Positions 7,756 through 38,977 of a stretch of 64,000 nucleotides of DNA are shown here, piece after piece (position 1 is the stretch's first letter; each line of letters opens with the position of its first letter). Source of the stretch: Escherichia phage QL01; the sequence record NC_028847.1. One strand, given 5' to 3'. A model generated the notes under the pieces. That model did not search any database and was not told where the DNA came from. It saw nothing but the letters and a program-made list of their open reading frames with translations. The translations under genes and the position numbers were made by a program.

Positions 7756-7894
7756 TTAAATTTTCCAATTGCCATTTTCATCAATGAATTTAACCCAGTC
7801 ATTTACCGACCACTTGGTTGTATCGCCTTTTGGAGCAACATTTAAGGTATATAACCCCTGCTTAAAAAGCATTCGTTTGATATTCATATTTTCC

Positions 7895-8188
7895 TCAGCT
7901 ATAACGATAACATTCGTTTGATTTACGTTTTGCAACTCGATGAGAAGTATTGTAATCAGGTTCATCGTCATTGTAAACATCTTTTTTCAGCTTTCTCACT
8001 TCTTTACGAAGCTGGCGGTTCATTTCGTTCTTAACTTCAGAATCAACACCGCGCATACGTTTCCACTTGTCGGAACGGAAGATATTTTCTTCAACCAGTT
8101 CCTGACTTACGCCGTCCGGTGCTTTACGACGTCCGGAATAATAAAAATCTTTTACAGACAATTCTTTACGACGAATAGTTTTACCCAT
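7895..8188 (-). CDS. hypothetical protein, highly basic
   Basis: 97-aa minus-strand ORF rich in K/R. Confidence 0.4.
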   Translation of the reverse strand: MGKTIRRKELSVKDFYYSGRRKAPDGVSQELVEENIFRSDKWKRMRGVDSEVKNEMNRQLRKEVRKLKKDVYNDDEPDYNTSHRVAKRKSNECYRYS

Positions 8189-8190
8189 AG

Positions 8191-8445
8191 TTACCTCAGC
8201 AGTTTGTATCCAATAAGATTTTTAATGTATTGGACATCTTTGACATCCAAATCTAACTTAATATCTTTCAGGCGGTCGCACAGGGTCAAAAAGGTTACAT
8301 GTTTCCAATTCTTCACTGGGCAGCAATAAGTTTTCGGGCCGTTGGCGATTTCAATATTCTTATCAGTGACGGTGAGAAAAATCAGGCGCTCATCATCCAG
8401 ATTAAGGGTAATGATATTTTTCATTGAATGTAATTTCAGACTCAT
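8191..8445 (-). CDS. hypothetical protein
   Basis: 84-aa minus-strand ORF; 4-nt overlap with downstream ORF. Confidence 0.4.
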   Translation of the reverse strand: MSLKLHSMKNIITLNLDDERLIFLTVTDKNIEIANGPKTYCCPVKNWKHVTFLTLCDRLKDIKLDLDVKDVQYIKNLIGYKLLR

Positions 8446-25409: not shown

Positions 25410-25709
25410 TTAGAAAGAACCAGAACCTCTAATTGTGTTCTGGCGACCTTTATTTTCTAATTCGGAGTGGTCGATTTCATATGCTTGTGCTACGCCAAAG
25501 GCCTTTTTAACTTTAGCTAAAGAACCTTTAGATGTAACAATATTAAAAGTATTACCTTTGGTAAAATCAACAAAATCGACTTGTACGCCCTGTTTACCGA
25601 GGCTTGCTACAATAGCATCAACATATTCTTGGTCTAAATTGCCTTGAACTCCAATTTGAAATGCTTTAGGAGCTTTGGCTTCTGTGATAAATTCTTGATA
25701 AGTTTTCAT
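25410..25709 (-). CDS. internal protein with capsid-targeting sequence (ipII-like size)
   Basis: Begins MKTYQEFITEAK, the T4 internal-protein capsid-targeting sequence; 99 aa. Confidence 0.7.
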   Translation of the reverse strand: MKTYQEFITEAKAPKAFQIGVQGNLDQEYVDAIVASLGKQGVQVDFVDFTKGNTFNIVTSKGSLAKVKKAFGVAQAYEIDHSELENKGRQNTIRGSGSF

Positions 25710-25752
25710 TGTTATTCCTTAAGTTGATAGAAGTATTCTATCACGGATTTAA
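25710..25752 (-). promoter_or_regulatory. perfect 8-bp inverted repeat TGATAGAA-gta-TTCTATCA between denV and internal-protein gene
   Basis: Plus-strand ttgatagaagtattctatca; resembles the promoter-cassette core; followed on minus strand by AAGGAA SD. Confidence 0.35.
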
Positions 25753-26169
25753 TTAAGCGTAAATAGCCTTGCCATAATGTTTGTACCAGGTAGGACGCTG
25801 TGCAATTTTTTCATCCAAACGGGTCTGAGATATAGCAATAGAAGCTTCGTGTGGAGTATAGTCACCACGGAATTCCTGAGGAATGTCACTAATGTCCTGG
25901 ACAGTAGTATCCTTGATATTAAAACCACGTTTTAAACATTCGGCTATAAGCTCAATTTGTCGCTTACGTAAAAATTCAAGCTTATCGTAAAAGAATGTAA
26001 CATGGCCTGTGCCAAGGATAAAAGTAGGACTGATTTTGAAATCACGGACACGTTTACCATTAGCAACATGCTTACGAACTGCACCGAAAACACGTGGTAA
26101 TTCACGATATTCAGCCATTAAGTGTTGGTCAGCCAATTCAGATACTAAGGTAAGGTTGATACGAGTCAT
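25753..26169 (-). CDS. denV: endonuclease V (pyrimidine-dimer DNA glycosylase) DenV
   Basis: 138 aa; [34 protein letters not shown], colinear with T4 endo V. Confidence 0.92.
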
Positions 26170-26225
26170 TTTTAATCTCCTGTAGTTGATAGGTCTATAG
26201 TATCATGACTACAGGAGATGTAAAC
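26170..26225 (-). promoter_or_regulatory. PeSL-like early promoter cassette upstream of denV (IR CTCCTGTAG/CTACAGGAG sequestering SD)
   Basis: Core 26186-26205; gtaaac 26220-26225; arms 26177-26185 and 26209-26217. Confidence 0.6.
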
Positions 26226-26249
26226 AACTTTTATCAAGTATAGGCTTTA

Positions 26250-26846
26250 TTAATTACCACGGGCTGCATTAGCAACGGCGTAAGCGTACTGAATATTAGC
26301 GTCTTTAAACGTACCTTTAGAGGTATCTATCTCTGCCTTAAAGCCGCCTTTAACCATAACATCAGCAAATTCTTTACGGAAAGTCATTGCATCAAGACCT
26401 TTCCATGCGGATTTATGCTTGGCAAATTCAAGACCGGCGAAGTTAACTGCTTTAGCCAATTTATTATCAATAGTCCATTTACCTGCTTTAGGTACAAACA
26501 CCGGGCCTTTCTGTTTAGAGAACAGTTTTAAATTCCAGCGACGAAGGTCACCGTCAGCTTTAACAAAAGCTGCGTCCAAGTTACTAGCAACAACATCTTG
26601 GATATGGGCAAATTTAAGTCCATCAGCTTCAATATTTAGGTCGTTACGCCAGCGAAGTCCTTCCCAGGCGAAAGCTTTAAAATCAGAAGCTTTTGTAGCC
26701 AAGTACCGTTCAATAGGAGCTGTTTTAGCGTCAAAACCGTTTCCTGGGTTGTCAACGCCGTTTCCTTTGTAAGTCCACTCATCTTTATTAATGCCTTGGA
26801 CCTTTCCTACAGAAGCTTCGGCGATAAATTCTTTATACGTTTTCAT
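26250..26846 (-). CDS. internal protein with capsid-targeting sequence (ipIII-like size)
   Basis: Begins MKTYKEFIAEAS; 198 aa, Lys/Ala-rich. Confidence 0.7.
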   Translation of the reverse strand: MKTYKEFIAEASVGKVQGINKDEWTYKGNGVDNPGNGFDAKTAPIERYLATKASDFKAFAWEGLRWRNDLNIEADGLKFAHIQDVVASNLDAAFVKADGDLRRWNLKLFSKQKGPVFVPKAGKWTIDNKLAKAVNFAGLEFAKHKSAWKGLDAMTFRKEFADVMVKGGFKAEIDTSKGTFKDANIQYAYAVANAARGN

Positions 26847-26928
26847 ACGGGTTCCTTAAAGGAAAATATTTTAATTGGTCTGTTCAAGTAACTGTAGATA
26901 TACTATCACAATTCTAGGAGATGTAAAC
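26847..26928 (-). promoter_or_regulatory. T4-type early promoter cassette (GTTTAC-17 nt-TAGTAT) upstream of internal-protein gene
   Basis: gtaaac 26923-26928; partial core ctgtagatatactatcaca. Confidence 0.5.
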
Positions 26929-27327
26929 TTATTTATAGGTCTTCATCCAATTCTTGAACAAAGCCGCGACGTCTTTCTCTTTAACGTTCAGTTTAATGTC
27001 CAACATTTTACCACCCGCTGCTCTGGTTTGGCGAATCTTAGCAGTACCGGTTTCGCCATTCCACTCAACATAATACTGTCCAGTGTTCATTGCAATACCA
27101 TCACCGTAGTCTTCATTTTTAGAAGTGGTGAATGCTAGCTTCATAGTCTTAGATACACGAGCCTGCATGCCTGTCTGAAGGGCATTACGAACGCGAATAA
27201 CCTGAGGAGTGGCCTGGGTCAAGTTCTCATTCAGTTCTTCAGTGAACTCTTCAGATTCAAACATCGCCAAAAGTTCTTTAGATGCAGGAATTACATTCTC
27301 TGCGATAAATTCATTATAAGTTTTCAT
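26929..27327 (-). CDS. internal protein with capsid-targeting sequence
   Basis: Begins [12 protein letters not shown]; 132 aa; start overlaps end of gene e. Confidence 0.65.
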
Positions 27328-27808
27328 ATGCTTTCCAAGTACCTGTTTTAAATGTTGAAATCACGCGCTTAGCACGATTAGGAGTTTGTTTATACCAACG
27401 GGATTGAGCCAGGTTAACTGCCGCATCGTTCCAACGTTTCTGTTGGAGCATACGTAAAGAGTTAGTGAACCCTGCTACGCCTGCTTCACCCATTTGGAAG
27501 ACCATGTTAATTAAAGCACAACGACGAACTTCGTCCAGTACATCATAAACAGGTTTCAATTTAGGATTACGCAGAATAGCTCTACGAGCATTTTCAACCG
27601 ATTGGTTAAAGAGTTGTTCAGCTTCAGCCATAGTAATACGACCATTACAAACTCGACCCATAAGCTTATCAAGTTCAGCACGAGCAACATCTTTAGAAGG
27701 GTTCTTAGTAATCAATTGGCCAATACCAATAGTCCAATAACCTTCAGTGTCTTTATAAAGATTTAAATCAAGACCTTCGTCTTGACGTAACATATCAAAA
27801 ATATCCAT
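27314..27808 (-). CDS. e: endolysin (T4 lysozyme e family)
   Basis: 164 aa, colinear with T4 lysozyme; catalytic E11/D20/T26 equivalents in [30 protein letters not shown]. Confidence 0.95.
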
Positions 27809-27810
27809 AA

Positions 27811-27832
27811 TACCTCCTGAGTATAGGAGGTA
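27811..27832 (-). promoter_or_regulatory. SD-sequestering hairpin in endolysin leader (CCUCCU-loop-AGGAGG)
   Basis: Plus-strand tacctcct gagtat aggaggta: perfect 8-bp IR; the minus-strand AGGAGG arm is the SD 3 nt before ATG 27808. Confidence 0.6.
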
Positions 27833-27838
27833 TTTATA
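27831..27838 (-). promoter_or_regulatory. late promoter TATAAATA positioned to start transcription inside the endolysin hairpin
   Basis: Plus-strand tatttata at 27831-27838; same arrangement as described for T4 gene e. Confidence 0.55.
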
Positions 27839-28288
27839 TCAAAAGAGCGAATCTAAAACCTTAAACATCGACGGGCCCATGACATATTCCCATTGCGGAC
27901 GTTTAATCAAAGCGAACGCATCGAATTCAGGAATAGTACGACCATCAGGGAACGTATGGTAAGCCGTACATTTGCAATCCTTGAACTGCTCGTGTTCCAC
28001 AGGCACTGTATATAAGAACAGATGTAGATTCTTATTGCTTGAATATTTGAACTCACCTAGGTCTTTCAGGAACGCAGGATCGTATGCTGTGAATCCAATC
28101 TCTTCTTCGGTTTCGCGCATTGCCGCTTGAATGGGCTCTTCGCCTGGTTCGACATGACCCTTAGGAATGTCCCATTTATGACGCATATTCTCTGGATTAC
28201 GAGAGCCTGTTACACGGCCCATGACCAGTTCTTTATCAACGGTCATGAATAAAATACCGGCAGATAGTTCTTTCACTTTCTTACTCAT
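27839..28288 (-). CDS. nudE: Nudix hydrolase NudE
   Basis: Nudix box GHVEPGEEPIQAAMRETEEEIGF; start set at MSKKVKEL (internal Met of ORF 27839..28393); ~150 aa as in T4. Confidence 0.85.
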   Translation of the reverse strand: MSKKVKELSAGILFMTVDKELVMGRVTGSRNPENMRHKWDIPKGHVEPGEEPIQAAMRETEEEIGFTAYDPAFLKDLGEFKYSSNKNLHLFLYTVPVEHEQFKDCKCTAYHTFPDGRTIPEFDAFALIKRPQWEYVMGPSMFKVLDSLF

Positions 28289-28517
28289 CGTCTCGTTCCC
28301 ATGATTGTTTAAAAATATCTTGCATAATAATTTGAAGTCTATTTTCTGATGATGGACTTTCACTATCAGACACTTGAAGCATATAGTCACCAATAGGACA
28401 GAACATATCCATATCGCTTTCTAAGTCTTCTTTAATTTTCTCTTCTGATGTTCCGGTATCATAGGAATACAGGTAAGAATCACATGACTCAGATTTAATA
28501 TAAATTGCAATACTCAT
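28281..28517 (-). CDS. hypothetical acidic protein
   Basis: 78-aa ORF. Confidence 0.35.
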   Translation of the reverse strand: MSIAIYIKSESCDSYLYSYDTGTSEEKIKEDLESDMDMFCPIGDYMLQVSDSESPSSENRLQIIMQDIFKQSWERDDE

Positions 28518-29107
28518 TTACGGCATTCCTCAATAAACTCATTTAAATTCTGTTTGATTTTACCTTCGTCGTAAAGACGTTGTTGACGACGTAAACGCCA
28601 TGGCATTTCAATAGCCAAGCACCAAATACTTAAAGCAGCGCCAGCGGCGGCAAGGTTCATTAATCCAGCGCCAATAATAGTTCGTTCTAGCGCATCATTC
28701 CAGTTGGCATCGATTAAAAATGAACTCAGCACTAACATTGGAAGTAAAGTAATAAAATACGCTACAACATATCGTCCGAACGTAAGCCATTCAGTATCAA
28801 TGAGCCTGGCCTTTCCATCTTGGAGACAAATATACTTATCGTCAGTGCGAGTGATTTTCTTTACTGGTTGCCAGCCGTTTACAATATAGCCCATTTTATA
28901 TTCCTCAATTAAAAGCTGTTTCATTTCGGCAGTACAACCTGACCAATCTATTGTACTGGCTGAAATTCCTTCATCACCATCATCAATATTTCGCCAGGAC
29001 TTTTTAATAATCATAGTCTCACCACTTGGGATAATAATTCCAGCATTTTCCGACCGACGGATGAAGTTTGTATCAATACCCATACAACCAGGTTCATAAA
29101 GGGCCAT
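28514..29107 (-). CDS. hypothetical membrane protein (C-terminal TM segments)
   Basis: 197 aa; hydrophobic segments in C-terminal half. Confidence 0.4.
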   Translation of the reverse strand: MALYEPGCMGIDTNFIRRSENAGIIIPSGETMIIKKSWRNIDDGDEGISASTIDWSGCTAEMKQLLIEEYKMGYIVNGWQPVKKITRTDDKYICLQDGKARLIDTEWLTFGRYVVAYFITLLPMLVLSSFLIDANWNDALERTIIGAGLMNLAAAGAALSIWCLAIEMPWRLRRQQRLYDEGKIKQNLNEFIEECRK

Positions 29108-29793
29108 TACCAGCCCTCCATAGGGAATTCCAGATATACTTGAGCATTAACGCGGATTTCATTTGTAATCTTTTTAACACGGTCTGTATTACGAGACACA
29201 CGACCAAACCAGCGCCACCCGTTACTTACTGCACGAGAACCTGTATGCCATGTTTGCCAATCAAACTGGAGTAACGTGCGGTCAGGAGCATCCCACTTGG
29301 TTAATTCATTGGACTCAATTTTTTCCAGAACTTCTTTATGCCACTGGCGATAGATAAGTTCGCCTTCAGGAATCTGACTGAACTGTGCAGTTCCGGTTGC
29401 AAAATGAGTAGGACACACATCAGCGTTAACAAGACCAAGAATATGTTCAGAATGGTATCGAGGATTATCATAATCAGGTTGCCCTGCGGTAATAAAGTGT
29501 TGACCCACCGGAATATCCGGACGTGGTACATCATCATGGTGATAACCTGGGATAGCAGGATACCAGCCAGGCATTAACATGTGTACACGGGAATCAAATA
29601 CTACATCCGAGTCTTTCCAATCGTCAGGAAGATTTTGGATAAAGCTACGAGTAATTGGGCCGCCATTATCAAAAGCAAAATTCAAATCACAGTTAAAGAA
29701 CATAGGCTCGTTTTTAATCTGGTCGTTTTTAATTGCATGAGCAAAACCGCCTACTGCACGAGCTTGACTATTAAACACTTTAGAACTATTCAT
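29107..29793 (-). CDS. hypothetical protein (His/Asp-rich, possible metal-dependent enzyme)
   Basis: 228-aa ORF with SD GAGGAAA; no confident motif. Confidence 0.4.
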   Translation of the reverse strand: MNSSKVFNSQARAVGGFAHAIKNDQIKNEPMFFNCDLNFAFDNGGPITRSFIQNLPDDWKDSDVVFDSRVHMLMPGWYPAIPGYHHDDVPRPDIPVGQHFITAGQPDYDNPRYHSEHILGLVNADVCPTHFATGTAQFSQIPEGELIYRQWHKEVLEKIESNELTKWDAPDRTLLQFDWQTWHTGSRAVSNGWRWFGRVSRNTDRVKKITNEIRVNAQVYLEFPMEGW

Positions 29794-29807
29794 AATATTT
29801 TCCTCAC

Positions 29808-30020
29808 TTACTTTTTGTTGAAAAAGTACATTTTACCTTTAGGGGATAAGGATACACGAAGTGCGTTACCAATACCAACTGAACATTTAACCAGGTCAGC
29901 AGATTTCAATTCACCAAATGCTTGACGAAGGTCACCGTCACGAGTGTTAACCATCAGGCATTTAGCACCAGCTGCACGAACTTCGTTTAACATGTTGATT
30001 GCTTGGTTAGAAAGTTTCAT
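29808..30020 (-). CDS. hypothetical small protein (start MKLSNQ)
   Basis: Internal start preceded by GGAGAA SD and promoter cassette. Confidence 0.4.
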   Translation of the reverse strand: MKLSNQAINMLNEVRAAGAKCLMVNTRDGDLRQAFGELKSADLVKCSVGIGNALRVSLSPKGKMYFFNKK

Positions 30021-30086
30021 TTTATTCTCCATTTCACTCTGTTGTTTTGATAGGTCTATAGTATCACACCTATAGACCTTGTACAC
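30021..30086 (-). promoter_or_regulatory. PeSL-like early promoter cassette (core; IR AGGTCTATAG/CTATAGACCT flanking -10)
   Basis: Core 30046-30065; -35 variant GTGTAC (plus gtacac 30081-30086). Confidence 0.55.
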
Positions 30087-30098
30087 TGTTTTGTGCAA

Positions 30099-31058
30099 TT
30101 ATTTTTCGAAAGGACGAATTAAATGTTGGTTACGCTTAAACCGTTCAATGTAGTCGTTTTCACCTAAAGTCTTATACATATTCACTACAGCTTGGTAGTT
30201 TTCCCATGCATAAGTGCGGAACCAACCTGAAGTGATTGAGGTGCACACTTTCTCAAGGGCCATATAGAAACTTAATGATGGTGAAATATTGAAGTCATTA
30301 GGAACCTGTGAACGTTCTAGTGCCAGGACACAAGTTTCTTCATACACACCAGCCAGTTTAATAGCTTCAGGCAAAGCCTCGAACTTCTCACGAGAGGTCA
30401 TGACTTCAGAACCTTCCTTCATATAAAAGGTATATGCAGGGCGCCCTGCCAATGCCACTGCTTCATGAATAGAGTCATGGTCCAGCGTATAAATGGTATC
30501 ATTAAAGAACGATGATTTGTTTACGTCCAATTTAGGGTGAGAATAGCTCAACGTTTCTTTTTGACGTTGCAGCATAATTTCCTGGAGTTCTTCGTTAAGG
30601 GTGATACCTTTATTACGAAGGTATTTGATGTGTGACATAGTTTTCAAGAAGAACGGATTATTCTTAAGGAAACGATGAGAGGTTTTGATAGCCAGACAGA
30701 TATCAGGGGTGGCCCAATAGAAACCAGTAAGACGGTCCTTTTTAATATGATTTTCAGCATATTTCAGGAGACGATAGCTTGAAGTGAAATCTTCGTCTTG
30801 AAGCTCACCGGTAATTTCTCGTACGTTAGTCAGAGCACGAACGATATAAGCTTCAAAATAGGTTTCTTTACCATTATGCATACATTTGAAAGCCTGGACA
30901 TCAGGATTGTCAACGTGTACATGGGCGCCGAACATACGTGCTTTAAAGTGATTCCATGAGCCTTGGTCGGCAATGAAATCCCAATCAGAATTTTCGATAT
31001 GCTTACTTTCAATCAGACCAGCGTGGTGCAGTGCACGAGAACCAATAACTAACATCAT
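30099..31058 (-). CDS. hypothetical protein (start MMLVIGSRALHHAG)
   Basis: ~319 aa; SD GAGGAAA; no recognised motif. Confidence 0.45.
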   Translation of the reverse strand: MMLVIGSRALHHAGLIESKHIENSDWDFIADQGSWNHFKARMFGAHVHVDNPDVQAFKCMHNGKETYFEAYIVRALTNVREITGELQDEDFTSSYRLLKYAENHIKKDRLTGFYWATPDICLAIKTSHRFLKNNPFFLKTMSHIKYLRNKGITLNEELQEIMLQRQKETLSYSHPKLDVNKSSFFNDTIYTLDHDSIHEAVALAGRPAYTFYMKEGSEVMTSREKFEALPEAIKLAGVYEETCVLALERSQVPNDFNISPSLSFYMALEKVCTSITSGWFRTYAWENYQAVVNMYKTLGENDYIERFKRNQHLIRPFEK

Positions 31059-31077
31059 AATATTTTCCTCAGTAAAC

Positions 31078-31317
31078 TTAAATTTCAGCGACGTAATCGT
31101 TATGCAATTCCCACATATCATCAGAATTATTCTTAATGATAGGAATTATCTCATTAGAGATTTCTTCAGCATAAGGGTCATTGATACAGTGGGCATCTTC
31201 AAAACGAACACCGTAATCAGACTTCTTATAAGAGAAGCCATAAATCTTTTTAAACTTGGCGCGAGTAATGCGTACCGGTTCATTAGACTTATCGGACATC
31301 GGAGCGTAATACCACAT
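31078..31317 (-). CDS. hypothetical protein
   Basis: 79-aa ORF with upstream early promoter. Confidence 0.4.
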   Translation of the reverse strand: MWYYAPMSDKSNEPVRITRAKFKKIYGFSYKKSDYGVRFEDAHCINDPYAEEISNEIIPIIKNNSDDMWELHNDYVAEI

Positions 31318-31370
31318 ATGTTCTCCTCATGTTTGTGTAGGGTAATAGTAACATGATTTTCTAGAGTTGT
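31318..31370 (-). promoter_or_regulatory. T4-type early promoter (TGTACA -35-like, TGtTACTAT extended -10)
   Basis: Minus strand ...ATGTACAACTCTAGAAAATCATGTTACTAT...GAGGAGAACATATG. Confidence 0.4.
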
Positions 31371-31690
31371 ACATCACTTCTGCAATATTCTAAAAATAAT
31401 TTATCATTGTCTACTGTATCCCAACGACGCCAAGACGGGTTCCAGACCAAAGCGTTGTCACCACAATCATTGAGCTTAAAATGGTCGTAGTACATAGCTA
31501 TGTGTCTAGTCTCGTCACCAGAGAACCCCAGTATAGGCTCACCGCGGGTGTGATACATATGATGGTGCATTGAGAGGTCGCATTTGTAAAACATCTCACG
31601 TTTACCACGAACGAACAAGAAGGCCTGTCCATTCATATAGAATTCTTTATTTGTTTTCAAAAGATATTTGAATACTGAATCTTTATGCAT
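31361..31690 (-). CDS. hypothetical His-rich protein (start MHKDSVF)
   Basis: Internal start with AGGAGG SD; HHHMYH cluster. Confidence 0.4.
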   Translation of the reverse strand: MHKDSVFKYLLKTNKEFYMNGQAFLFVRGKREMFYKCDLSMHHHMYHTRGEPILGFSGDETRHIAMYYDHFKLNDCGDNALVWNPSWRRWDTVDNDKLFLEYCRSDVQL

Positions 31691-31720
31691 AAGTCCTCCT
31701 ACCACATCCATGTGGTTAAA

Positions 31721-31948
31721 TTATTTTCCTAACGAAATACGAGTAGGTTTTTTACCGAAATAGTCTTCATAAGAACCATCTAAACGACCTGCTTTAGACC
31801 GACAATATGAATCGTACTTTTTGTAATAAGTCATCTCAGTATTATAACGCGGGTGTCTATCAGCCATAATAATACTTAACGGCCAACCTTTGGCATAATC
31901 GCGAAGACCATTTATTTTACGAATGTATCTTTTCTTTAATTTTAGCAT
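31721..31948 (-). CDS. hypothetical basic protein
   Basis: 75-aa ORF; start overlaps stop of upstream paralog. Confidence 0.4.
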   Translation of the reverse strand: MLKLKKRYIRKINGLRDYAKGWPLSIIMADRHPRYNTEMTYYKKYDSYCRSKAGRLDGSYEDYFGKKPTRISLGK

Positions 31949-32166
31949 GAGCTCGGATACCAGATTTTACCATCGGCCTGAGCAACGAAGGTGCGACCAG
32001 CTTCTTCGCCATAACACGAGCTATTCAGCCAATCTTCGAGACGAACTTCACCGTCATAATCGTCGAGCTCAACACCAAAACTTTGAGCAGAAGCCATATC
32101 TTTTACTTTCTTATACAGTGCAGCCAGTTCAAGTGCAGCTTTTTCTAATTCATTAATATCAGACAT
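31942..32166 (-). CDS. small acidic protein, paralog family member 1 (C-terminal W-Y-P-S-S-C)
   Basis: 74 aa; ends GKIWYPSSC. Confidence 0.5.
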   Translation of the reverse strand: MSDINELEKAALELAALYKKVKDMASAQSFGVELDDYDGEVRLEDWLNSSCYGEEAGRTFVAQADGKIWYPSSC

Positions 32167-32177
32167 TTTTTATCACC

Positions 32178-32390
32178 TTAGCAAGACATAGAGGATGTAA
32201 ACCAGAAACCTTCACCTTCCGGAATACCGTAGTCATCACGGACCCATTCGTAATCATCATATTCCGGGTTCTTTGGAGAAATGTATTCTCCACGACCAGA
32301 AACACGGAACTCTTCACCCGTTTCGTCAGCCACAGACTGGCCTTTACGTACTAATTCACGGATTTGGTTTTCAATTTCATCAATAGTCAT
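32178..32390 (-). CDS. small acidic protein, paralog family member 2 (C-terminal W-F-T-S-S-M-S-C)
   Basis: 70 aa; ends GFWFTSSMSC; stop embedded in TAAGG SD of next gene. Confidence 0.5.
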   Translation of the reverse strand: MTIDEIENQIRELVRKGQSVADETGEEFRVSGRGEYISPKNPEYDDYEWVRDDYGIPEGEGFWFTSSMSC

Positions 32391-32399
32391 TTTATTTCC

Positions 32400-32681
32400 T
32401 TAACATTCAGAAGAAGAGGACACCCAACCACCATTTTCTAGGCTGGTAGTGTAATCATGTTGGTTTACAATAGCGTACTGAGCTTCACCGTATTCTTCCC
32501 AGTGGGCAAGGTCGGCTTTCAAGGCGCCAGGAGAATAATAGTCACCGCCCATACCGCGAGCAGGGTATATATTAAAATGAGTCTCATATTTGTTTGCAAT
32601 TTCCTCGGCACGACGAATAGCTTTATGGATATCATTTACTGCTTCAGCCAATTCTTTATTTTTATGGTAATCATTCATCAT
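32400..32681 (-). CDS. small acidic protein, paralog family member 3 (C-terminal W-V-S-S-S-S-E-C)
   Basis: 93 aa; ends GGWVSSSSEC. Confidence 0.5.
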   Translation of the reverse strand: MMNDYHKNKELAEAVNDIHKAIRRAEEIANKYETHFNIYPARGMGGDYYSPGALKADLAHWEEYGEAQYAIVNQHDYTTSLENGGWVSSSSEC

Positions 32682-32690
32682 AGCGTTTCC

Positions 32691-32981
32691 TTAGCACATT
32701 GCCGAAGAGGAGATCCAAGCACCAACTGTAACGACGCCATTTTCAACTTCACCACCGTTGTTTTCAATTTCATCTTTAAACCACTGGGAGCATTCATAAC
32801 CGACAGGATAATATGTACGGCCTGAACCATAATCACCAGTACCGAATTGGATACCATACTTATCGGCAATAGCTTCACATTCATGTTCGATGGTATTCAC
32901 TTTATTCAGAAGAGCATAGATAGCCTTTTCTGCAGATTTCTCGTCATTGTGTTCCGGGATTTCAATTTCAATTTTATTCAT
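32691..32981 (-). CDS. small acidic protein, paralog family member 4 (C-terminal W-I-S-S-S-A-M-C)
   Basis: 96 aa; ends GAWISSSAMC. Confidence 0.5.
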   Translation of the reverse strand: MNKIEIEIPEHNDEKSAEKAIYALLNKVNTIEHECEAIADKYGIQFGTGDYGSGRTYYPVGYECSQWFKDEIENNGGEVENGVVTVGAWISSSAMC

Positions 32982-33331
32982 GATTTACATTCCTTAATAA
33001 AGGTTTCAAGGTCATTACGTTTAGTTTGTTTTACATACTCATTATAATTAGCCATAGCTAAAGCATATCTCTTTTTACGTGGCTTGTTTATTTTATTAGT
33101 TTGGGCAATATCAAAGACCCATGGGATAAAAAATCCTATTAAAGCCGGAACCCAAATCCATGCAAGGCTCATATCTTCAAACGGATGGCGAGGCATACCA
33201 TTAATAATCCCACCGACAAGAAATCCAATTATCCCTGCAGTCATACTAGTAGCAATGCCGAGGAATAAGGAAATAGCTATATCATAATCTGCTAATGCGT
33301 AACCAGGGTCGGTTTTACTAGGCTTATGCAT
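32978..33331 (-). CDS. hypothetical membrane protein (2 TM; start MHKPSK)
   Basis: Internal start with AAGAGG SD; two long hydrophobic segments. Confidence 0.45.
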   Translation of the reverse strand: MHKPSKTDPGYALADYDIAISLFLGIATSMTAGIIGFLVGGIINGMPRHPFEDMSLAWIWVPALIGFFIPWVFDIAQTNKINKPRKKRYALAMANYNEYVKQTKRNDLETFIKECKS

Positions 33332-33788
33332 TTTGAACCTCTTTAGCGTATTCGCGACATTCAGTAATAAAACGATTAAGTTTACGTTGTTGTTTACGAA
33401 TCTCTGATGTATACTCATTGGCTAAAATAATAAGCTCATCTTTATCGTAATTTTTAATATCCGAATAACTCGGGCGGCGGTCGACCATACCAAAGTGGTC
33501 ACCATTTTCTAACATCAAATAGCATACTAAATGGTAATCATCGTCGGCATCAACAAGCTGTTTATAATCGCTTGGTTCATTTAAAGAGTATACTGAATAG
33601 CGTAGCTCAGCTAAAGCAAAGATAAAGGGTAATTTGGTAGTATGCTCACGGCTAGATGTTCTGCTTAAGAAATCGTTTGAATAGCCTAGGTCTTGGCGAA
33701 TTCTATAAAGAACTGAATTGGTTTCATGGGAAAGACCACTATTTTTAAACCAATCAATATTTGATATCAGGTCGTCGTATAAACTCAT
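33324..33788 (-). CDS. hypothetical protein
   Basis: 154-aa ORF. Confidence 0.45.
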   Translation of the reverse strand: MSLYDDLISNIDWFKNSGLSHETNSVLYRIRQDLGYSNDFLSRTSSREHTTKLPFIFALAELRYSVYSLNEPSDYKQLVDADDDYHLVCYLMLENGDHFGMVDRRPSYSDIKNYDKDELIILANEYTSEIRKQQRKLNRFITECREYAKEVQNA

Positions 33789-33804
33789 AATATTCTCCTC
33801 TCCT

Positions 33805-33829
33805 CCAAATAGGGAGACCGAAGTCTCCC
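33805..33829 (-). terminator. UUCG-loop hairpin (GGGAGAC-UUCG-GUCUCCC) after gene 33837..34430; weak U-tract
   Basis: Plus-strand gggagaccgaagtctccc; may be partial terminator or RNA-stability element. Confidence 0.4.
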
Positions 33830-33836
33830 GGTAACA

Positions 33837-34430
33837 TTACTTAAGTGAATTAATGTAGTCTTCGATATCAGCAGAAGTCGTATCCATTCCAACTTGCGGG
33901 CCTTTAAACGTTTCTACGCGCAGTAGGGTGTCTTCAATATCAATCTTGGTCAGTGCAGCGATTTCAACAACATCGTCGGCAGTAGCAATACCAAGGGCAG
34001 CCATATTACGAGTTTCACGGATGTACTCGAGCTTAACAGCCAGTTCCTGACGAGAGTCATCAAGTTCCTTAACCTTCAGTTTAATTTCATTACGCATTTC
34101 GATATAATCATCGGCTTTCTTCCGAAGCTGAGTAGCTGTACGACGATAAAGGAGACCGAGTTTAGCATGTACCTGGACATCAGAGCCTTCGGCAATCAGT
34201 TTACGAATTTCACGTTCTTTAGAAGCAGCGAGCTGGTCCTTTTCATTAGCCAAAGCACGAATACGTTTTTCTTCATTCACAGACTTAACATGAGCAGTCT
34301 GGAGTTCAGTGATTTTATCAATCAGAGTAGAAGCAGCTTTGGTGTATTGGTCTTCGATTGACAGGTTCTGAGTCATTGCGGTGCCCAGTTTAGAACGAAT
34401 GAATTCAACGATTTTCTTTAAAGTGTTCAT
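33837..34430 (-). CDS. hypothetical coiled-coil protein
   Basis: 197 aa, almost entirely heptad-like. Confidence 0.45.
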
Positions 34431-34503
34431 AGTATTTCCTTCAGTTGGTTAACGTTTTGTAATCCATGAGGACATTATACCCTGTCCTCTGAGGTTTGTA
34501 AAC
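34431..34503 (-). promoter_or_regulatory. T4-type early promoter (GTTTAC-17 nt-TATAAT) with IR GAGGACA/TGTCCTC flanking -10
   Basis: gtaaac 34498-34503; arms 34468-34474 and 34483-34489. Confidence 0.5.
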
Positions 34504-34506
34504 ATT

Positions 34507-34905
34507 TTATTTCATTTTTGCGAGGCAGATTTCATTGGCTTCCCATTGAGCTTGCTTAATAATAGCTTTGGATACAGGAACCCTTTGGCCATAAGTTTTT
34601 GATGTTGAGAGAACAATATGTTTGTTTGCTTCATTATGCCAGCCCCATGATTTTTCGCCATGAGTACCTTTAACTACAGCTGACACCTCAACAGAGCAAC
34701 CACCATCAGAAATCTTGGTTTCGACAACCCATTCATTTCTCTCGACAGCTTCAATTTCCAATCTAGTTTTTTCTTCATACATCGCGGCCCAATCAGTTTT
34801 TGCCAAGTTGAAAGCAAGAGCTTTCTCTAATTCTTTGGCATATTTTTGTTGTTCGGGTGTTAATGAATTATACAACTCTTGCATTTCTTTATCTTCGATA
34901 TTCAT
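34507..34905 (-). CDS. hypothetical protein
   Basis: 132-aa ORF. Confidence 0.45.
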   Translation of the reverse strand: MNIEDKEMQELYNSLTPEQQKYAKELEKALAFNLAKTDWAAMYEEKTRLEIEAVERNEWVVETKISDGGCSVEVSAVVKGTHGEKSWGWHNEANKHIVLSTSKTYGQRVPVSKAIIKQAQWEANEICLAKMK

Positions 34906-34961
34906 TATGTTCTCCTCAAATTATGGGGCTCATAATATCTTAATAATGAGCCCATGTAAAC
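34906..34961 (-). promoter_or_regulatory. T4-type early promoter (GTTTAC, TATTAT) with IR flanking -10
   Basis: gtaaac 34956-34961; near-palindrome atggggctcat / atgagcccat. Confidence 0.45.
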
Positions 34962-34964
34962 GTT

Positions 34965-35228
34965 TTATTTCATATTATTGAAATAATTTTCTGCATCAAA
35001 ATCACTACCATGGTAAACTTTGGTAGACGATTTGGCGTAACCTTCAGCTGAGAACATATTAATCACAACTTTAATTGTATACCACTGTCCATCTTCATTA
35101 CCCATTACTGCATAGGTTTCATACACCGGGTGTTCAGGACCGATAACCTTAATATCGTTAACTGTGGCACCAAATTCTTCCGGAACACATTTCATAAAGA
35201 AATTAAACACTTCACCATAATTATCCAT
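34965..35228 (-). CDS. hypothetical protein (start MDNYGEV)
   Basis: ATG start with AAGGAG SD; ORF-track start is a GTG 5 codons upstream. Confidence 0.4.
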   Translation of the reverse strand: MDNYGEVFNFFMKCVPEEFGATVNDIKVIGPEHPVYETYAVMGNEDGQWYTIKVVINMFSAEGYAKSSTKVYHGSDFDAENYFNNMK

Positions 35229-35292
35229 TTTACTCTCCTTCACTCTGTTGTTTTGATAGGTCTATAGTATCATGTTCTACGAAAGAGTAAAC
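35229..35292 (-). promoter_or_regulatory. PeSL-like early promoter cassette (core ttgataggtctatagtatca)
   Basis: Core 35253-35272; gtaaac 35287-35292. Confidence 0.6.
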
Positions 35293-35315
35293 ATCTTTTT
35301 TAAACCTTTTAGAAA

Positions 35316-35345
35316 CAAAAAAGGCCCAACCTTTCGGAAGGGCCT
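35316..35345 (-). terminator. intrinsic terminator (GGCCC...GNRA-loop...GGGCC plus U6)
   Basis: Plus-strand aaaaaaggcccaacctttcggaagggcct after gene end 35350. Confidence 0.55.
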
Positions 35346-35349
35346 AGAA

Positions 35350-35904
35350 TCAGTTCTTGTAGAACCGGAATGGGTTTATGTGGAAGGCTAACATAGCCTT
35401 AGGGATTTTACGAGACAAAAGGCTCTTAAGCTTCCAACCACAGTACACGCGAAGGTAAAAGGTAATCCCACCAACCTTAAGATATGGAACTGAAGCAAAT
35501 ACACCCCAGGCGTCGTCATTCCACATCCATAACCACCCGTGATGAGCTTTATCAGGAGAACCGGATTCCACGTCGGGATTACCTCGATAATGGAATTCCG
35601 AGCTACAATCACGACCGAGTTTATGGTAAGCAAAGTTATAAGCTTTATTTCGCCATAGCCAAGCTACTCTCTGAAGATAAACACCACCCGGCATTTTCCT
35701 GATGTTAGCCCAACGTTTAATATGACCTTTATCACCGTCAATTGGATTATCGTATGTCATCATCCAATCAAAGCCGTACGGTAATTTACCTGTCTTTTTA
35801 TTGTGGAAAGGAACCACAAATGGTGCAAGGATAACAGCCAGAACCATAGAGATAAAATCCAGTGGAACCAACAGAACCCAACTCAAATATTTTAAAAGTT
35901 TCAT
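35350..35904 (-). CDS. hypothetical membrane protein (N-terminal TM; start MKLLKYL)
   Basis: Internal Met directly after upstream terminator; ORF track extends to 36009 through the hairpin. Confidence 0.4.
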   Translation of the reverse strand: MKLLKYLSWVLLVPLDFISMVLAVILAPFVVPFHNKKTGKLPYGFDWMMTYDNPIDGDKGHIKRWANIRKMPGGVYLQRVAWLWRNKAYNFAYHKLGRDCSSEFHYRGNPDVESGSPDKAHHGWLWMWNDDAWGVFASVPYLKVGGITFYLRVYCGWKLKSLLSRKIPKAMLAFHINPFRFYKN

Positions 35905-35917
35905 ATATTTCTCTAAG

Positions 35918-35945
35918 TTAACCAAAAAGCCCCAGACGGGGCTTT
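35918..35945 (-). terminator. intrinsic terminator (AAAGCCCC-GUCU-GGGGCUUU plus U-tract)
   Basis: Perfect 8-bp stem directly after internal-protein gene stop at 35948. Confidence 0.55.
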
Positions 35946-35947
35946 CG

Positions 35948-36412
35948 TTATTTGATTTGTTTAGCAGACCAGATACGGTCTTTGATGATTTTCTGAATAT
36001 CTTCAACATACTCTAAGTCGTGAGCATGTGGATTATCTTTGAAGCTATGTGCTCGTGCCAGTTTCTGGCCTTCTGTTTTGATTACTAAAAGCTCTTTAAG
36101 AATTGCTTCATACTTAGAAATAATTCCTTTGGCGATATTTTTTTCTTGAGCGGCTTTAGGGTCCGCTTTTGACGCAGGTGCTTTACCTGTAGCTTTCTGG
36201 AACAATTCACCTGAGGCAGCTAGGCTTTTAAAAACTCGGCTAACAGTATTGGCATTAGTAAAACCTTCGGCTTTAAAATCTTTAATAAAACGGAAACGTT
36301 CTTCATCAGAGGCGTCTTTGTAAGAATATTTACCTGCTTGAATTGCTGCAATCGCAGCGGCTTTTACATCTGAACTAGATTGTTCAGTCAAAAATTCATT
36401 GTAAGTTTTCAT
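35948..36412 (-). CDS. internal protein with capsid-targeting sequence
   Basis: Begins MKTYNEFLTEQS; 154 aa, Lys/Ala-rich. Confidence 0.65.
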   Translation of the reverse strand: MKTYNEFLTEQSSSDVKAAAIAAIQAGKYSYKDASDEERFRFIKDFKAEGFTNANTVSRVFKSLAASGELFQKATGKAPASKADPKAAQEKNIAKGIISKYEAILKELLVIKTEGQKLARAHSFKDNPHAHDLEYVEDIQKIIKDRIWSAKQIK

Positions 36413-36438
36413 ATTATTTCCTAAGTTAGTTTACTACA

Positions 36439-36446
36439 TATTTATA
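36439..36446 (-). promoter_or_regulatory. late promoter TATAAATA upstream of internal-protein gene
   Basis: Plus-strand tatttata 36439-36446, ~27 nt upstream of ATG 36412. Confidence 0.5.
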
Positions 36447-36447
36447 C

Positions 36448-36478
36448 AAAAAAAGCCCAACCTTTCGGAAGGGCCTTT
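36448..36478 (-). terminator. intrinsic terminator closing the tRNA/ncRNA transcription unit
   Basis: Plus-strand aaaaaaagcccaacctttcggaagggcct; near-duplicate of hairpin at 35316-35345; U7 on minus transcript. Confidence 0.55.
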
Positions 36479-36857
36479 AACCTAGGGTAACCTTGTCGGG
36501 GTTCCACCTGCTAGGCAAGTGTTTGTACGAAACGCCGGGATTCGAACCCGGTTATTAAGTAGTTGACGCCACTCAATATTTTTAAAAGGCCATATCTCGA
36601 CCATATCCGAACGTTCCGTCAAAAACGCTACTCGGCTTACGGCAAAGATATTTCCTCGAATCGATAATTCGGTGCGCCGTTTCTGCTGTGATGTAAGGGG
36701 ACGTTAACAGATCGTAAAGATTTGTTAATGCCAGTCCTTACTCAGGGAACATCAGTCCGACGACTTACCGGTAGCGACCCGGTTTCTTGTTTGTTGCGCC
36801 GGTGAATGCTGGTAATCAGTCTTCATACGACGGCTTGACTATATAATAGTCTTCATT
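36479..36857 (-). ncRNA. structured non-coding region downstream of tRNA-Arg; contains tRNA-like T-arm CCGGG-TTCGAAT-CCCGG (36535-36551); possible counterpart of T4 small stable RNAs
   Basis: No ORF on minus strand; multiple stem-loops (e.g. GACTAT-TAT-ATAGTC); T-arm consensus without a complete cloverleaf. Confidence 0.35.
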
Positions 36858-36932
36858 TGGTATCCCGCCCTGGGATCGAACCAGGACCGCAAACTTAGAA
36901 GGATCGTATGCTATCCATTACACCAGCGGGAC
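36858..36932 (-). tRNA. tRNA-Arg (anticodon TCT), CCA encoded
   Basis: Minus strand GTCCCGC...anticodon loop CTTCTAA...T-arm CCTGG-TTCGATC-CCAGG...GCGGGAT-A-CCA; 7-bp acceptor stem with one G-U. Confidence 0.8.
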
Positions 36933-36937
36933 GTAGT

Positions 36938-37014
36938 TGGTGACCCAGACCAGATTTGAACTGGTAACCTTTCCCTTATGAGGGGACTGCTGCTAACCAT
37001 TGAGCTACAGGGCC
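36938..37014 (-). tRNA. tRNA with CAT anticodon (Met or lysidine-type Ile), CCA encoded
   Basis: Minus strand GGCCCTG TAGCTCAATGG...anticodon loop CTCATAA...T-arm ACCAG-TTCAAAT-CTGGT...CTGGGTC-A-CCA; one U-U mismatch in acceptor stem. Confidence 0.7.
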
Positions 37015-37019
37015 TTAAA

Positions 37020-37292
37020 TCAAACTACAAATCCAGCAGGAGCATTATCATCTTTAGCCATGTGCTGAATTGTATGATAAGTCATTTCTTCAGGAGCAAC
37101 CAGATAAGCCGCAGCGTTAACTAGTGGAATTATTTTTGGTTTGGCGAATGTGCTATCGGCAATTGCCATAAAGGGCTCGCCATCAGTCTCAACTTCGCCA
37201 AATTGACATTCATATGAAATAGAACAACGTTTGGTAGTTGTTGTCTTGGTTTCTGGGTCGTAAAAAGCTAATTTTAATACTAACATAAACAC
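37020..37292 (-). CDS. hypothetical protein
   Basis: 90-aa ORF ending 5 nt before the tRNA cluster. Confidence 0.4.
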   Translation of the reverse strand: MFMLVLKLAFYDPETKTTTTKRCSISYECQFGEVETDGEPFMAIADSTFAKPKIIPLVNAAAYLVAPEEMTYHTIQHMAKDDNAPAGFVV

Positions 37293-37460
37293 CTCAAATA
37301 AAATTAAGTAAAGTAAGTTTGATTAATAGACCTTGTCTATTATGAAAGGTTCTTTGAGGGAAGAACCTTTGGTAATAGAGGGTATTAATGATAGAGTAAT
37401 AATAACACATTACTCTTAAAGCATATTACTATTTTTAGGAATAGTCTGGTCAAATTTGAT
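37293..37460 (-). promoter_or_regulatory. 168-nt non-coding spacer with three inverted repeats (10-bp AAAGGTTCTT/AAGAACCTTT; 8-bp AGAGTAAT/ATTACTCT; TAGAC/GTCTA)
   Basis: No ORF; perfect IRs at ~37355-37380 and ~37395-37420. Confidence 0.3.
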
Positions 37461-37751
37461 TCATTGTGGCCACATATTAATGTAATCAAGTTTAATAGAA
37501 GCAATCTTCAAAGGATTTTTAAAGATGTCGTATTCGACCAACCCGTTTTCAGTTGCGGTGTAGAAAGTAAAGTTAACAGAATTATAACGGCGACCATTAA
37601 CTTTTAGTTTAACGTCGCTTGAACTACGACCAATATTAACCTGTTGGACATCAAGCACAGCACCTTTGCCAAAGTTGCGAATCAGTAGCTCTGCTGCAAC
37701 CTGGTCTGAATTATAGCCATTCTCTGGATTAGTAACCTTAACGTATAGCAT
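37461..37751 (-). CDS. hypothetical protein
   Basis: 96-aa ORF. Confidence 0.4.
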   Translation of the reverse strand: MLYVKVTNPENGYNSDQVAAELLIRNFGKGAVLDVQQVNIGRSSSDVKLKVNGRRYNSVNFTFYTATENGLVEYDIFKNPLKIASIKLDYINMWPQ

Positions 37752-38159
37752 TTAACCCTCGTCTACAATAGTATGGGTATTAGCATTAACAATCTGCCAC
37801 CAGTCACAGTCAAAACGATTAGAACCGTAACGAGGCTTTTTCTCATTTTCGTTAATAATATCACGTAGTTCGTCTTCAGAAAATGCTTTAGCGATTAAAT
37901 CGGTATAGCCGCCACGTGGATAATAGTTATCACCTGCGAACAGAAGGAAATTTACTTTACCAGAAGGAACATATGCTTCCTTAGGATACTTGTTTCCTGC
38001 TTGGTCTACCACTTCAATATAACGGTAAGGAATATCGGTACTTTCAACCCATTGCCAAGCTGCAGCAGGGGATTCAAAAGCATCTACACCTAAACGGTTA
38101 TCTTCATCTTTAGACGGATTATTTTCATAATCCGCATATACATAATATTCAATGTTCAT
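37752..38159 (-). CDS. hypothetical protein
   Basis: 135-aa ORF, abuts upstream ORF. Confidence 0.4.
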   Translation of the reverse strand: MNIEYYVYADYENNPSKDEDNRLGVDAFESPAAAWQWVESTDIPYRYIEVVDQAGNKYPKEAYVPSGKVNFLLFAGDNYYPRGGYTDLIAKAFSEDELRDIINENEKKPRYGSNRFDCDWWQIVNANTHTIVDEG

Positions 38160-38356
38160 TATTCACCTTTAGAGATTTTATCCATAACGAAAGAAATTGA
38201 ACCAATTAAGAATGCCACTACTAAAGAGATTATATTCTCGGAAGTTGAAAGCATATCGAGCATGAATCCTGCAAACATACTAAAGCCAAAAGCAGTAACA
38301 GCGGCCAGTGCAGTAACATTTCTAATTAATTCACAACGTTTCATTTTATTCTCCAA
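38159..38356 (-). CDS. hypothetical small membrane protein
   Basis: 65 aa with two hydrophobic segments; preceded by promoter cassette. Confidence 0.4.
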   Translation of the reverse strand: MENKMKRCELIRNVTALAAVTAFGFSMFAGFMLDMLSTSENIISLVVAFLIGSISFVMDKISKGE

Positions 38357-38410
38357 TCACTCATTTGTTTTGATAGGGCTATAGTACCATCACTAAAGCC
38401 CGTTGTAAAC
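38357..38410 (-). promoter_or_regulatory. PeSL-like early promoter cassette (core variant ttgatagggctatagtacca with compensating partner arm)
   Basis: Core 38370-38389; gtaaac 38405-38410. Confidence 0.55.
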
Positions 38411-38412
38411 AA

Positions 38413-38685
38413 TTATTTTAAATAAATTGCATATTTTTTATAACCAGCCGTCTCGTGGCGCAGCCCTTTTTCATTAGCAAAACGTTCAATATTGTTAATT
38501 TGATTCTGGTCGAGTTCTGAAGTATCAAATACAAAAAAGTTTCGCTTATTGCCTAAAGTTACGTGATTAGTCAAATCGATGTTATAGAGATGATTTATAT
38601 TATCAATCATGGTCTTAACAGATTTGTTAATTTTTACTTCTTCATTAAGAATAGATTCAGCGATAAATTCTTGGTATGATTTCAT
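38413..38685 (-). CDS. internal protein with capsid-targeting sequence
   Basis: Begins MKSYQEFIAESI; 90 aa. Confidence 0.6.
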   Translation of the reverse strand: MKSYQEFIAESILNEEVKINKSVKTMIDNINHLYNIDLTNHVTLGNKRNFFVFDTSELDQNQINNIERFANEKGLRHETAGYKKYAIYLK

Positions 38686-38686
38686 T

Positions 38687-38911
38687 TTATTCAGCGCCAG
38701 CGGCTTTCAAAAGTTTTTTAAGATTGGCTATGCCGCCAGCAGAAAACGTGACCTTGCCACCTTTTTCATTGATAGAGCCAGTCAATTTAGCAAGCTTATC
38801 ACTAGGGACTTTTTTAAAATCAGCCAGTGTGCCATCAAAGGTTTTTGTAACAATTGGCAGTTCATCTTCATGTCTTTTAGCTTCGGTGATAAATTCTTGA
38901 TAAGTTTTCAT
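38687..38911 (-). CDS. internal protein with capsid-targeting sequence
   Basis: Begins MKTYQEFITEAK; 74 aa. Confidence 0.6.
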   Translation of the reverse strand: MKTYQEFITEAKRHEDELPIVTKTFDGTLADFKKVPSDKLAKLTGSINEKGGKVTFSAGGIANLKKLLKAAGAE

Positions 38912-38977
38912 TTTGATTTCCGTTTGGTTAGTTTGTTTTGATAGGTCTATAGTATCATGCCTATAGACCTTGTAAAC
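38912..38977 (-). promoter_or_regulatory. PeSL-like early promoter cassette (core; IR AGGTCTATAG/CTATAGACCT)
   Basis: Core 38938-38957; gtaaac 38972-38977. Confidence 0.6.

Follow-up and report, generated by a model that had tools for sequence, protein, structure and literature searches.

Six genes with a T4-type capsid-targeting leader in Escherichia phage QL01, and their relatives among T-even phages

The genes considered here lie in a stretch of 64,000 nucleotides (nt) of the genome of Escherichia phage QL01 (sequence record NC_028847.1), referred to below as the window. Six of its open reading frames (ORFs), named A to F, all on the minus strand, start with the sequence MK[TS]Y[QKN]EF[IL][AT]E. 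The reading preferred, with a probability of about 0.85, is that they encode internal proteins (Ips) of the T4 type, directed into the head by this N-terminal tag, cleaved by gp21 and injected together with the DNA; packaging, cleavage and injection in QL01 are predicted from sequence. Four of the proteins (A, B, E and F) belong to families already recognised as internal proteins, and C and D to unannotated families.

The six ORFs were recovered both from the ORF listing and from a six-frame motif scan, at the coordinates given by the original prediction, which had been made from the letters of the DNA (Table 1). A degenerate DNA pattern for the leader gave six matches in the window, all of them corresponding to A-F, with 0.00 expected from 100 shuffles. 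Moreover, with a position-weight matrix built from 137 leaders of the same kind from IMG/VR, the starts of A-F scored 34-38 bits and the next-best ORF start of the window 4.2 bits. There are thus exactly six such genes in the window and none is borderline; the same weight-matrix scan of the window revealed neither further nor more divergent members, including any with the IpI-type leader MKTFKEF.

The identification of the leader as the T4 capsid-targeting sequence (CTS), also proposed by the original prediction, is supported by several lines of comparison. T4 IpII and IpIII start with MKTYQEFIAE, and the first ten residues of IpIII suffice for incorporation and are enough to package foreign proteins in T4 (PMC9026906). 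The mutagenesis of Mullaney & Black 1996, as summarised in a review (PMC9026906), assigns targeting chiefly to positions 4 and 7 and processing to positions 8 and 10. Tyr4, Phe7, Ile/Leu8 and Glu10 are invariant in the six leaders; the amino acids at positions 1, 2, 4, 6, 7 and 10 are fixed, and positions 3, 5 and 9 vary. Codons 3, 4, 9 and 10 differ synonymously between the leader copies, which, with the residues fixed, points to selection on the peptide and not on the DNA. As for the machinery that would read the tag, the window ends in gene 17 and the prohead genes lie just beyond; the Dhakavirus JS10, which is 92% identical across the locus, has gp67, gp68, gp21, gp22 and gp23, its gp21 protease being 89% and its gp22 scaffold 77% identical to those of T4. 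In addition, most of the six genes occupy known ip loci, and four of the proteins are homologous to named Ips.

Downstream of the leader the proteins show no mutual sequence resemblance. With the leaders removed, the cargoes of A-F fell into six separate clusters and did not match one another, and the ORFs range from 74 to 198 amino acids (aa), both as predicted; the sole longer pairwise alignment is that of A with D (30% over 93 residues, E-value 7e-4), leader included. The predicted mature proteins, of 6.7-20.7 kDa and with isoelectric points (pI) of 8.0-9.6, resemble T4 Ip1-3; they are basic and Lys-rich, with net charges of +1 to +8. No Pfam match reached threshold for any of the six proteins, and a PDB sequence search gave only marginal matches.

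The PHROGs families annotated as internal head or virion proteins match A, B, E and F (E-values 7e-115 to 8e-27). A belongs to phrog_2667, 'internal head protein' (E-value 7e-43); it is 94-97% identical to 'ip7' of VR20/VR26 and 50% identical to 'internal head protein 7' of T2, and its family is present in 282 phage records. B is 87% identical to T4 IpIII over the full length (198 aa, E-value 2e-129) and matches phrog_5341, 'internal virion protein' (E-value 7e-115). E, in phrog_7673, is 77% identical to UniProt Q38376, 'Ip9' of RB15, and 81% identical to 'ip9' of VR7/VR25/VR26 (191 phage records). F matches phrog_8765, 'internal virion protein' (106 records, including many Klebsiella T4-like phages), and its residues 1-57 are 89.5% identical to 'ip8' of vB_EcoM-VR5. 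The Ip7/Ip8/Ip9 nomenclature reportedly originates with Repoila and colleagues (EMBO J 13:4181, 1994).

C and D belong to families of 'unknown function' and are called 'hypothetical' throughout among the matches listed. C (phrog_15461) was found in 48 phage records, and the CTS is kept in 17 of 17 database homologues, down to members that are only 56% identical. D (phrog_2280) was found in 510 phage records, including many Tequatrovirus members, RB27, RB51 and PP01, and is 74% identical to Bas37_0244; its homologues from different genera keep the CTS, including the targeting and cleavage positions. The D family is the most widespread of the six, yet it is unannotated among the matches listed. 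Structure prediction of the cargo domains, which had been suggested as a check, was run for C and D and gave no functional lead. The AlphaFold2 (AF2) model of C is poor (mean confidence score, pLDDT, 54), with residues 1-38 disordered; that of D (pLDDT 72) comprises a disordered, low-confidence leader, a helical domain at residues 13-67, a Lys/Pro/Ala linker and a helical hairpin. A fold search with the D model against PDB and BFVD returned, apart from its own uncharacterised family, only ferritin-like helical matches that were not significant.

Three weak resemblances were also considered and set aside. That of C to the small domain of M.HhaI (E-value 0.01, 17.7 bits) is treated as chance; a fold search lent it no support, though the model of C used there was itself poor. 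A similarity between D and IpII over ~43 residues (phrog_7857, E-value 7e-4) was not confirmed by structure, and when E or F was compared with the McrBC inhibitor Bas37_0260, encoded at the same locus, only the CTS matched.

The 14.5 kb around the six genes match 961 phage records, the best of them being Dhakaviruses (vB_EcoM-E33, 98% identity; WG01, 97%; JS10, 92%), and the window is that of a Dhakavirus, a T4 relative of the JS98/JS10/WG01 type. Read along the minus strand, the genes are e, C, B, denV, A and, some 9 kb further on, tRNA-Met, tRNA-Arg, rnaD, rnaC and D, followed by the F-E pair between 57B and trna.4. Comparison with T4 places B and C, between denV and e, at the position of ipII/ipIII, and the F-E pair (F the first gene, E the second, starting after a 1-nt gap) at the position of ipI. 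C overlaps the stop of the lysozyme gene e by 14 nt. A has vs.8 and denV as its neighbours and is separated by denV from the T4 ipII/ipIII position. Thus the hypervariable ip loci (denV-e and trna.4-57B) hold B, C, E and F, A is nearly there, across denV, and D is outside both. D stands downstream of the tRNA genes and of the rnaD/rnaC homologues, at a place where T4, between rnaC and e.8, has only non-coding DNA. The corresponding site downstream of rnaC also holds two CTS genes in phage Bas37. A minor new point is that D adds a third location for CTS genes to the two canonical Ip loci.

Some observations concern the surroundings of D. The rnaC homologue is 98.6% identical to T4 rnaC over 139 nt and the rnaD homologue 88% identical to T4 rnaD over 118 nt; both lie between tRNA-Arg and D. 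Rfam has no family for rnaC/rnaD, and the two tRNAs are its only reports there. An ORF of 219 aa shares 62 nt with the 3' end of D. The gene annotated at its position in JS10 encodes 184 aa, so the true start of this ORF is probably an internal Met (MKLLKYLSWVLL...), where the sequence resembles a membrane segment.

Table 1. Coordinates of the six tagged ORFs, their leaders, nearby promoter elements and neighbouring features in the window
Feature	Position	Strand	Remarks
A	25410-25709	-	99 aa; predicted mature form 89 aa, pI 9.0; Ip7 family; CTS MKTYQEFITE
B	26250-26846	-	198 aa; predicted mature form 188 aa, pI 9.5; IpIII orthologue
C	26929-27327	-	132 aa; CTS protein, unnamed family
D	35948-36412	-	154 aa; predicted mature form 144 aa, pI 9.5; unnamed family; CTS MKTYNEFLTE
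E	38413-38685	-	90 aa; Ip9 family; CTS MKSYQEFIAE
F	38687-38911	-	74 aa; Ip8 family; CTS MKTYQEFITE
CTS-coding 30 nt of A	25680-25709	-	DNA pattern search
CTS-coding 30 nt of B	26817-26846	-	DNA pattern search
CTS-coding 30 nt of C	27298-27327	-	DNA pattern search
CTS-coding 30 nt of D	36383-36412	-	DNA pattern search
CTS-coding 30 nt of E	38656-38685	-	DNA pattern search
CTS-coding 30 nt of F	38882-38911	-	DNA pattern search
Late motif TATAAATA	26930-26937	-	91 nt upstream of B; made of last codons and stop of C (...MKTYK*)
Late motif TATAAATA	27831-27838	-	upstream of gene e; probably also serves overlapping C
Late motif TATAAATA	36439-36446	-	34 nt upstream of D; GC-rich hairpin and T-run (about 36447-36478) before motif
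T4-early-type promoter of A	25735-25763	-	TTTACG-17-TAGAAT, TG extension
T4-early-type promoter of B	26900-26927	-	TTTACA-16-TAGTAT, TG extension
T4-early-type promoter of F-E pair	38949-38976	-	TTTACA-16-TACTAT, TG extension
C-terminal repeat of C	26929-26946	-	...NWMKTYK*
E cargo	38416-38631	-	residues 19-90 of E
219-aa ORF	35350-36009	-	overlaps 3' end of D
rnaC homologue	36526-36664	-	between tRNA-Arg and D
rnaD homologue	36671-36787	-	between tRNA-Arg and D

The signals for expression differ from gene to gene. On its minus strand the window has five copies of the late-promoter motif TATAAATA, three of which precede units with CTS genes. The copy before D is where the original prediction had placed it, but the count of one gene with such a motif was too low, since B has its own copy and C would be served through e. 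Of the six, D shows the cleanest late promoter, without an early one, and on these signals it looks late-only. The original prediction had spoken of early cassettes at others of the genes; only A, B and F have their own early-type promoter, of the form TTTAC[A/G], 16-17 nt, TA[G/C][T/A]AT with a TG extension. Dual early and late expression, proposed for the set, fits B, but D carries late-looking signals only, and the signals close to A and to the F-E pair are all of the early type. For A and F-E, late supply would depend on read-through or on persistence of the early-made protein.

The end of C, which contains the late motif of B, repeats the first residues of the CTS. This C-terminal MK(T/S/I/V)(Y/H)K is kept in most of the C family, and the two most divergent members do not have it; the repeat may be held in place by the promoter that overlaps it, or it may be left over from recombination through the leader.

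In order to place the set among its relatives, IMG/VR was scanned with the leader pattern, which yielded 94 DNA stretches with 137 CTS ORFs of 65-406 aa. Without their leaders the 137 ORFs formed 44 clusters, or 47 when the six window genes and the three T4 Ips were added, and each of the six window cargoes joined a recurrent cluster. Among the 31 IMG/VR contigs longer than 140 kb, counts of CTS ORFs per contig, which are to be read as lower bounds, were one in nine contigs, two in ten, three in four, four in five, five in one and six in two. That the phage would deliver a larger and diversified set of injected proteins, as the original prediction had it, fits in so far as six is the top of the sampled range (1-6), but QL01 is not an outlier and the number is shared with other Dhakaviruses. 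The possibility that six CTS genes are exceptional is rejected in view of the Dhakaviruses IME281 and IME341, to which the two contigs with six appear to correspond, and of Salmonella phage ABTNLS3, with six within the homologous 15 kb.

Close relatives differ in which genes they hold. JS10 has Ip7, C and IpIII and does not have D. C and IpIII of the window and of JS10 are 94-97% identical outside the leaders, and their order is exchanged: e, C, IpIII, denV in the window (26250-27327) versus e, IpIII, C, denV in JS10 (L001:2848-3884), which looks like cassette shuffling within one locus. JS10 (EU863409) also contains an unannotated ORF of 97 aa with the CTS MKTYQEFIKE (L001:14981-15274, minus strand), which fills the roughly 650-nt 'empty' gap between trna.4 and 57B and whose cargo family is absent from the window.

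In the same 15 kb of ABTNLS3, the six CTS genes are two from other families in place of Ip7, together with IpII, IpIII, C and Ip9; its IpII orthologue is 95% identical to T4 IpII, a protein that the window does not encode. The two former ORFs (L002:900-1157 and 1166-1525, minus strand; 85 and 119 aa), both labelled 'hypothetical', stand at the vs.8-denV site, where the window has Ip7. Bas37 (KarlGJung, MZ501089), a Tequatrovirus, has four CTS genes, one pair at the ipI locus and another at the D site; it has neither ipII nor ipIII, and denV abuts e. Its pair at the rnaC-proximal site (L100:7029-7592 and 7718-8191, minus strand) consists of bas37_0244 and bas37_0243, both 'hypothetical': the product of bas37_0244 belongs to the D family and has the leader MKSYTQFLNE followed by a second LNE motif, and that of bas37_0243 (187 aa) represents a new family. 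Overall, the presence or absence of Ip genes varies among close relatives, phages ~95% identical in DNA differing in their sets, which indicates that the Ip genes are dispensable. The pattern agrees with published accounts of a hypervariable Ip repertoire.

The cargo of E is also found outside tagged proteins. Its residues 19-90 are homologous to untagged siphophage proteins of 66-77 aa. One of these, with ~51% identity, is encoded by a 72-aa ORF in Escherichia phage M01 (OR061069; L098:2504-2722), a siphophage of the Guernseyvirinae; the ORF starts at a codon of its own, lacks a CTS and opens a cluster of small genes beside a helicase gene. A HMMER scan of 1.84 billion representative proteins found the E cargo in 11 clusters, among them six of untagged 66-77 aa proteins, three with CTS-like starts, and one in which the domain is embedded, at residues 669-734 of an 861-aa phrog_3867 protein (P0048). 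The hosts of this cargo are Guernseyvirinae/Kagunavirus siphophages and, more weakly, Salmonella myophages of roughly 157 kb. These distributions suggest that the CTS is a portable tag joined to captured, pre-existing accessory modules.

The sequence of events proposed for the six proteins is as follows. Each would be made with the ten-residue N-terminal CTS, which would bind the gp22/gp21 scaffolding core, so that the protein would be built into the prohead; gp21 would then cut after Glu10, at (I/L)-x-E, and the mature product, small and mostly basic, would stay with the DNA in the head. At the next infection this protein would be injected with the DNA, and because of that it would be present before any phage gene expression. 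In the cell, each mature Ip would most likely bind and block one particular host nuclease that attacks modified phage DNA, of the GmrSD or McrBC-type type IV class, and the set of cargoes would be a shuffled, phage-specific draw from a large pool of unrelated families. As B is an orthologue of T4 Ip3, an anti-restriction role is very probable for it; for the other five, to which this role is extended from the class, the chances appear roughly even.

Several points weigh against this scheme. No virion proteomics or N-terminal mapping was found for QL01 or any other Dhakavirus, in a literature coverage that does not include the JS98 genome paper, and no canonical TATAAATA lies within 160 nt of A or the F-E pair. 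None of the six is homologous to T4 Ip1, T4 Ip2 or Bas37_0260, so that the target of five of the six would be pure extrapolation. C and D have no annotated Ip homologue, and their sequences and models yield no clue to function. Furthermore, Dhakavirus DNA probably carries an arabinosylated, not a glucosylated, cytosine derivative (PMC13326640), so that other host nucleases than those known from work on T4 may be the relevant ones.

Other explanations of the same genes have to be weighed against injection for defence. The proteins could be packaged and serve mainly as structural, lysine-rich counter-ions condensing the head DNA, the inhibition of host defences being the exception; the Lys-rich composition and positive charge of the mature forms would fit, as would the ~1000 internal-protein molecules of a T4 head, whose lysines contact DNA phosphates (PMC3012670). 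Such a main role is nevertheless improbable: all three T4 Ips and Bas37_0260 are specific restriction-enzyme inhibitors, and neither the ~47 unrelated cargo families nor the differing sets of phages ~95% identical in DNA would be explained by it. E, moreover, is nearly neutral (pI 8.0, net charge +1), and its cargo is also encoded by an untagged early-type siphophage gene, where it cannot act inside the head. The two roles are in any case compatible with each other. It is similarly doubtful that only some of the six are real Ips, with C, D or the early-promoter-only A, F and E keeping a CTS-like start by descent or recombination and acting in the cytoplasm. The 'hypothetical' status of C and D among the matches listed, the distance of A and F-E from any TATAAATA and the fact that IpIII is functional without its CTS when supplied in the cytoplasm all speak for it, but without selection on the tag there is no easy explanation for the retention of the CTS across the C family and, for D, across genera; D, moreover, is preceded by the clearest late promoter of the set and by no early one, and ten residues are enough in T4 to package foreign proteins.

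A conservation of the shared start as DNA or RNA, either as a translation-initiation or regulatory element or as a homology patch for cassette exchange, is scarcely credible. In its favour, the leaders of A and F agree at 34 of 36 nt, and both the C/IpIII swap and the occurrence of the Ip7 cargo family at different loci in different phages fit recombination through the leader. Conservation at the nucleotide level as the cause of the shared start is rejected on account of the synonymous variation of the codons with the residues fixed, and the residues that never vary are those to which mutagenesis assigns a function in the peptide; use of the leader for recombination would be a by-product of targeting and not an alternative to it.

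The reading of A-F as injected T4-type internal proteins can be taken further, in a tentative combination for which the odds are somewhat below even: C and D would be unrecognised injected counter-defence proteins, the D site, between rnaC and the e.8-like genes, a third Ip hot spot, the CTS a portable tag that turns early counter-defence genes into pre-made, injected ones, and some cargoes would act against nucleases other than the GmrSDs specific for glucosyl-hydroxymethylcytosine (glucosyl-hmC). If this is true, the picture of two Ip loci is incomplete, the D family being present in >500 T-even-type genomes. Injected Ips are a first-line counter-defence, in the cell before phage transcription, and since 2022 every Ip tested has turned out to inhibit a type IV restriction enzyme specifically. 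With six of them, two from unannotated families and five without known target, a phage supplies a ready set of candidates for anti-restriction activity. This is relevant to predicting the host range of therapeutic T4-like phages and leaves the concept unchanged.

Among known systems, the closest is T4 IpIII (Ip3), which has the same CTS as B and stands in the same place beside gene e. It inhibits the GmrSD of E. coli ECOR17 (PMC12373910; PMC9391042), and Srikant et al. 2022 described it as required on this host and as functioning in the cytoplasm without the CTS (PMC9391042). B differs from it by 13% divergence and by an insertion of 5-6 residues near the N-terminus of the mature part and, since a Dhakavirus has a different probable DNA modification, the variant targeted could also differ. 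Silas et al., who speak of two Ip loci, showed that each of the three T4 proteins Ip1, Ip2 and Ip3 blocks a GmrSD type IV restriction enzyme of its own (PMC12373910). T4 IpI and IpII, inhibitors of GmrSD-CT596 and GmrSD-ECOR21, share with the window proteins the delivery logic, the loci and the small basic mature form, but their cargoes are not homologous to any of the six; the CTS of IpII is identical to the MKTYQEFIAE type, whereas IpI has a longer, 19-residue leader (MKTFKEF...ITE) that does not occur in the window. Both their sequences and the names used in public records assign A, F and E to Ip7, Ip8 and Ip9 of T-even phages, respectively, for which no published target was found in the literature; the Ip7-like gene of T2 and RB33-type Tequatroviruses is at the ipI locus, whereas in the window it lies between vs.8 and denV. 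Bas37_0260, a CTS protein that inhibits McrBC (HIDEN-SEQ preprint, bioRxiv 10.1101/2025.11.20.689424), resembles the F-E pair in coming from an ipI locus with two genes and has the CTS MKTYQEFIAE, but its cargo is unrelated to any of the six.

More distant parallels exist in other phages. The Dar proteins of phage P1 (DarA/DarB/Hdf) are analogous, being anti-restriction proteins loaded into the head at assembly and injected with the DNA (PMC12810830); these are unrelated proteins of an unrelated phage, with other incorporation rules and no MKTYQEFIAE tag, so that the case is one of analogy and not of family membership. The ejection proteins of giant phages (phiKZ, SPN3US) likewise have N-terminal propeptides cut after Glu by a T4-related prohead protease (PMC5694885), but these are large proteins with another tag, mostly propeptides of >100 residues and an A/S-x-E motif. 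Finally, the T-even internal proteins themselves have been described as a highly diverse defence set sharing only a conserved CTS (Rao and Black 2010, citing Repoila et al. 1994; PMC3012670), with 'at least 10 reported so far' (PMC12373910). That a single CTS precedes many unrelated cargoes, in hypervariable loci, has been on record since 1994, and the six genes of QL01 join a system of which the principle, the tag, the loci and the diversity are already known.

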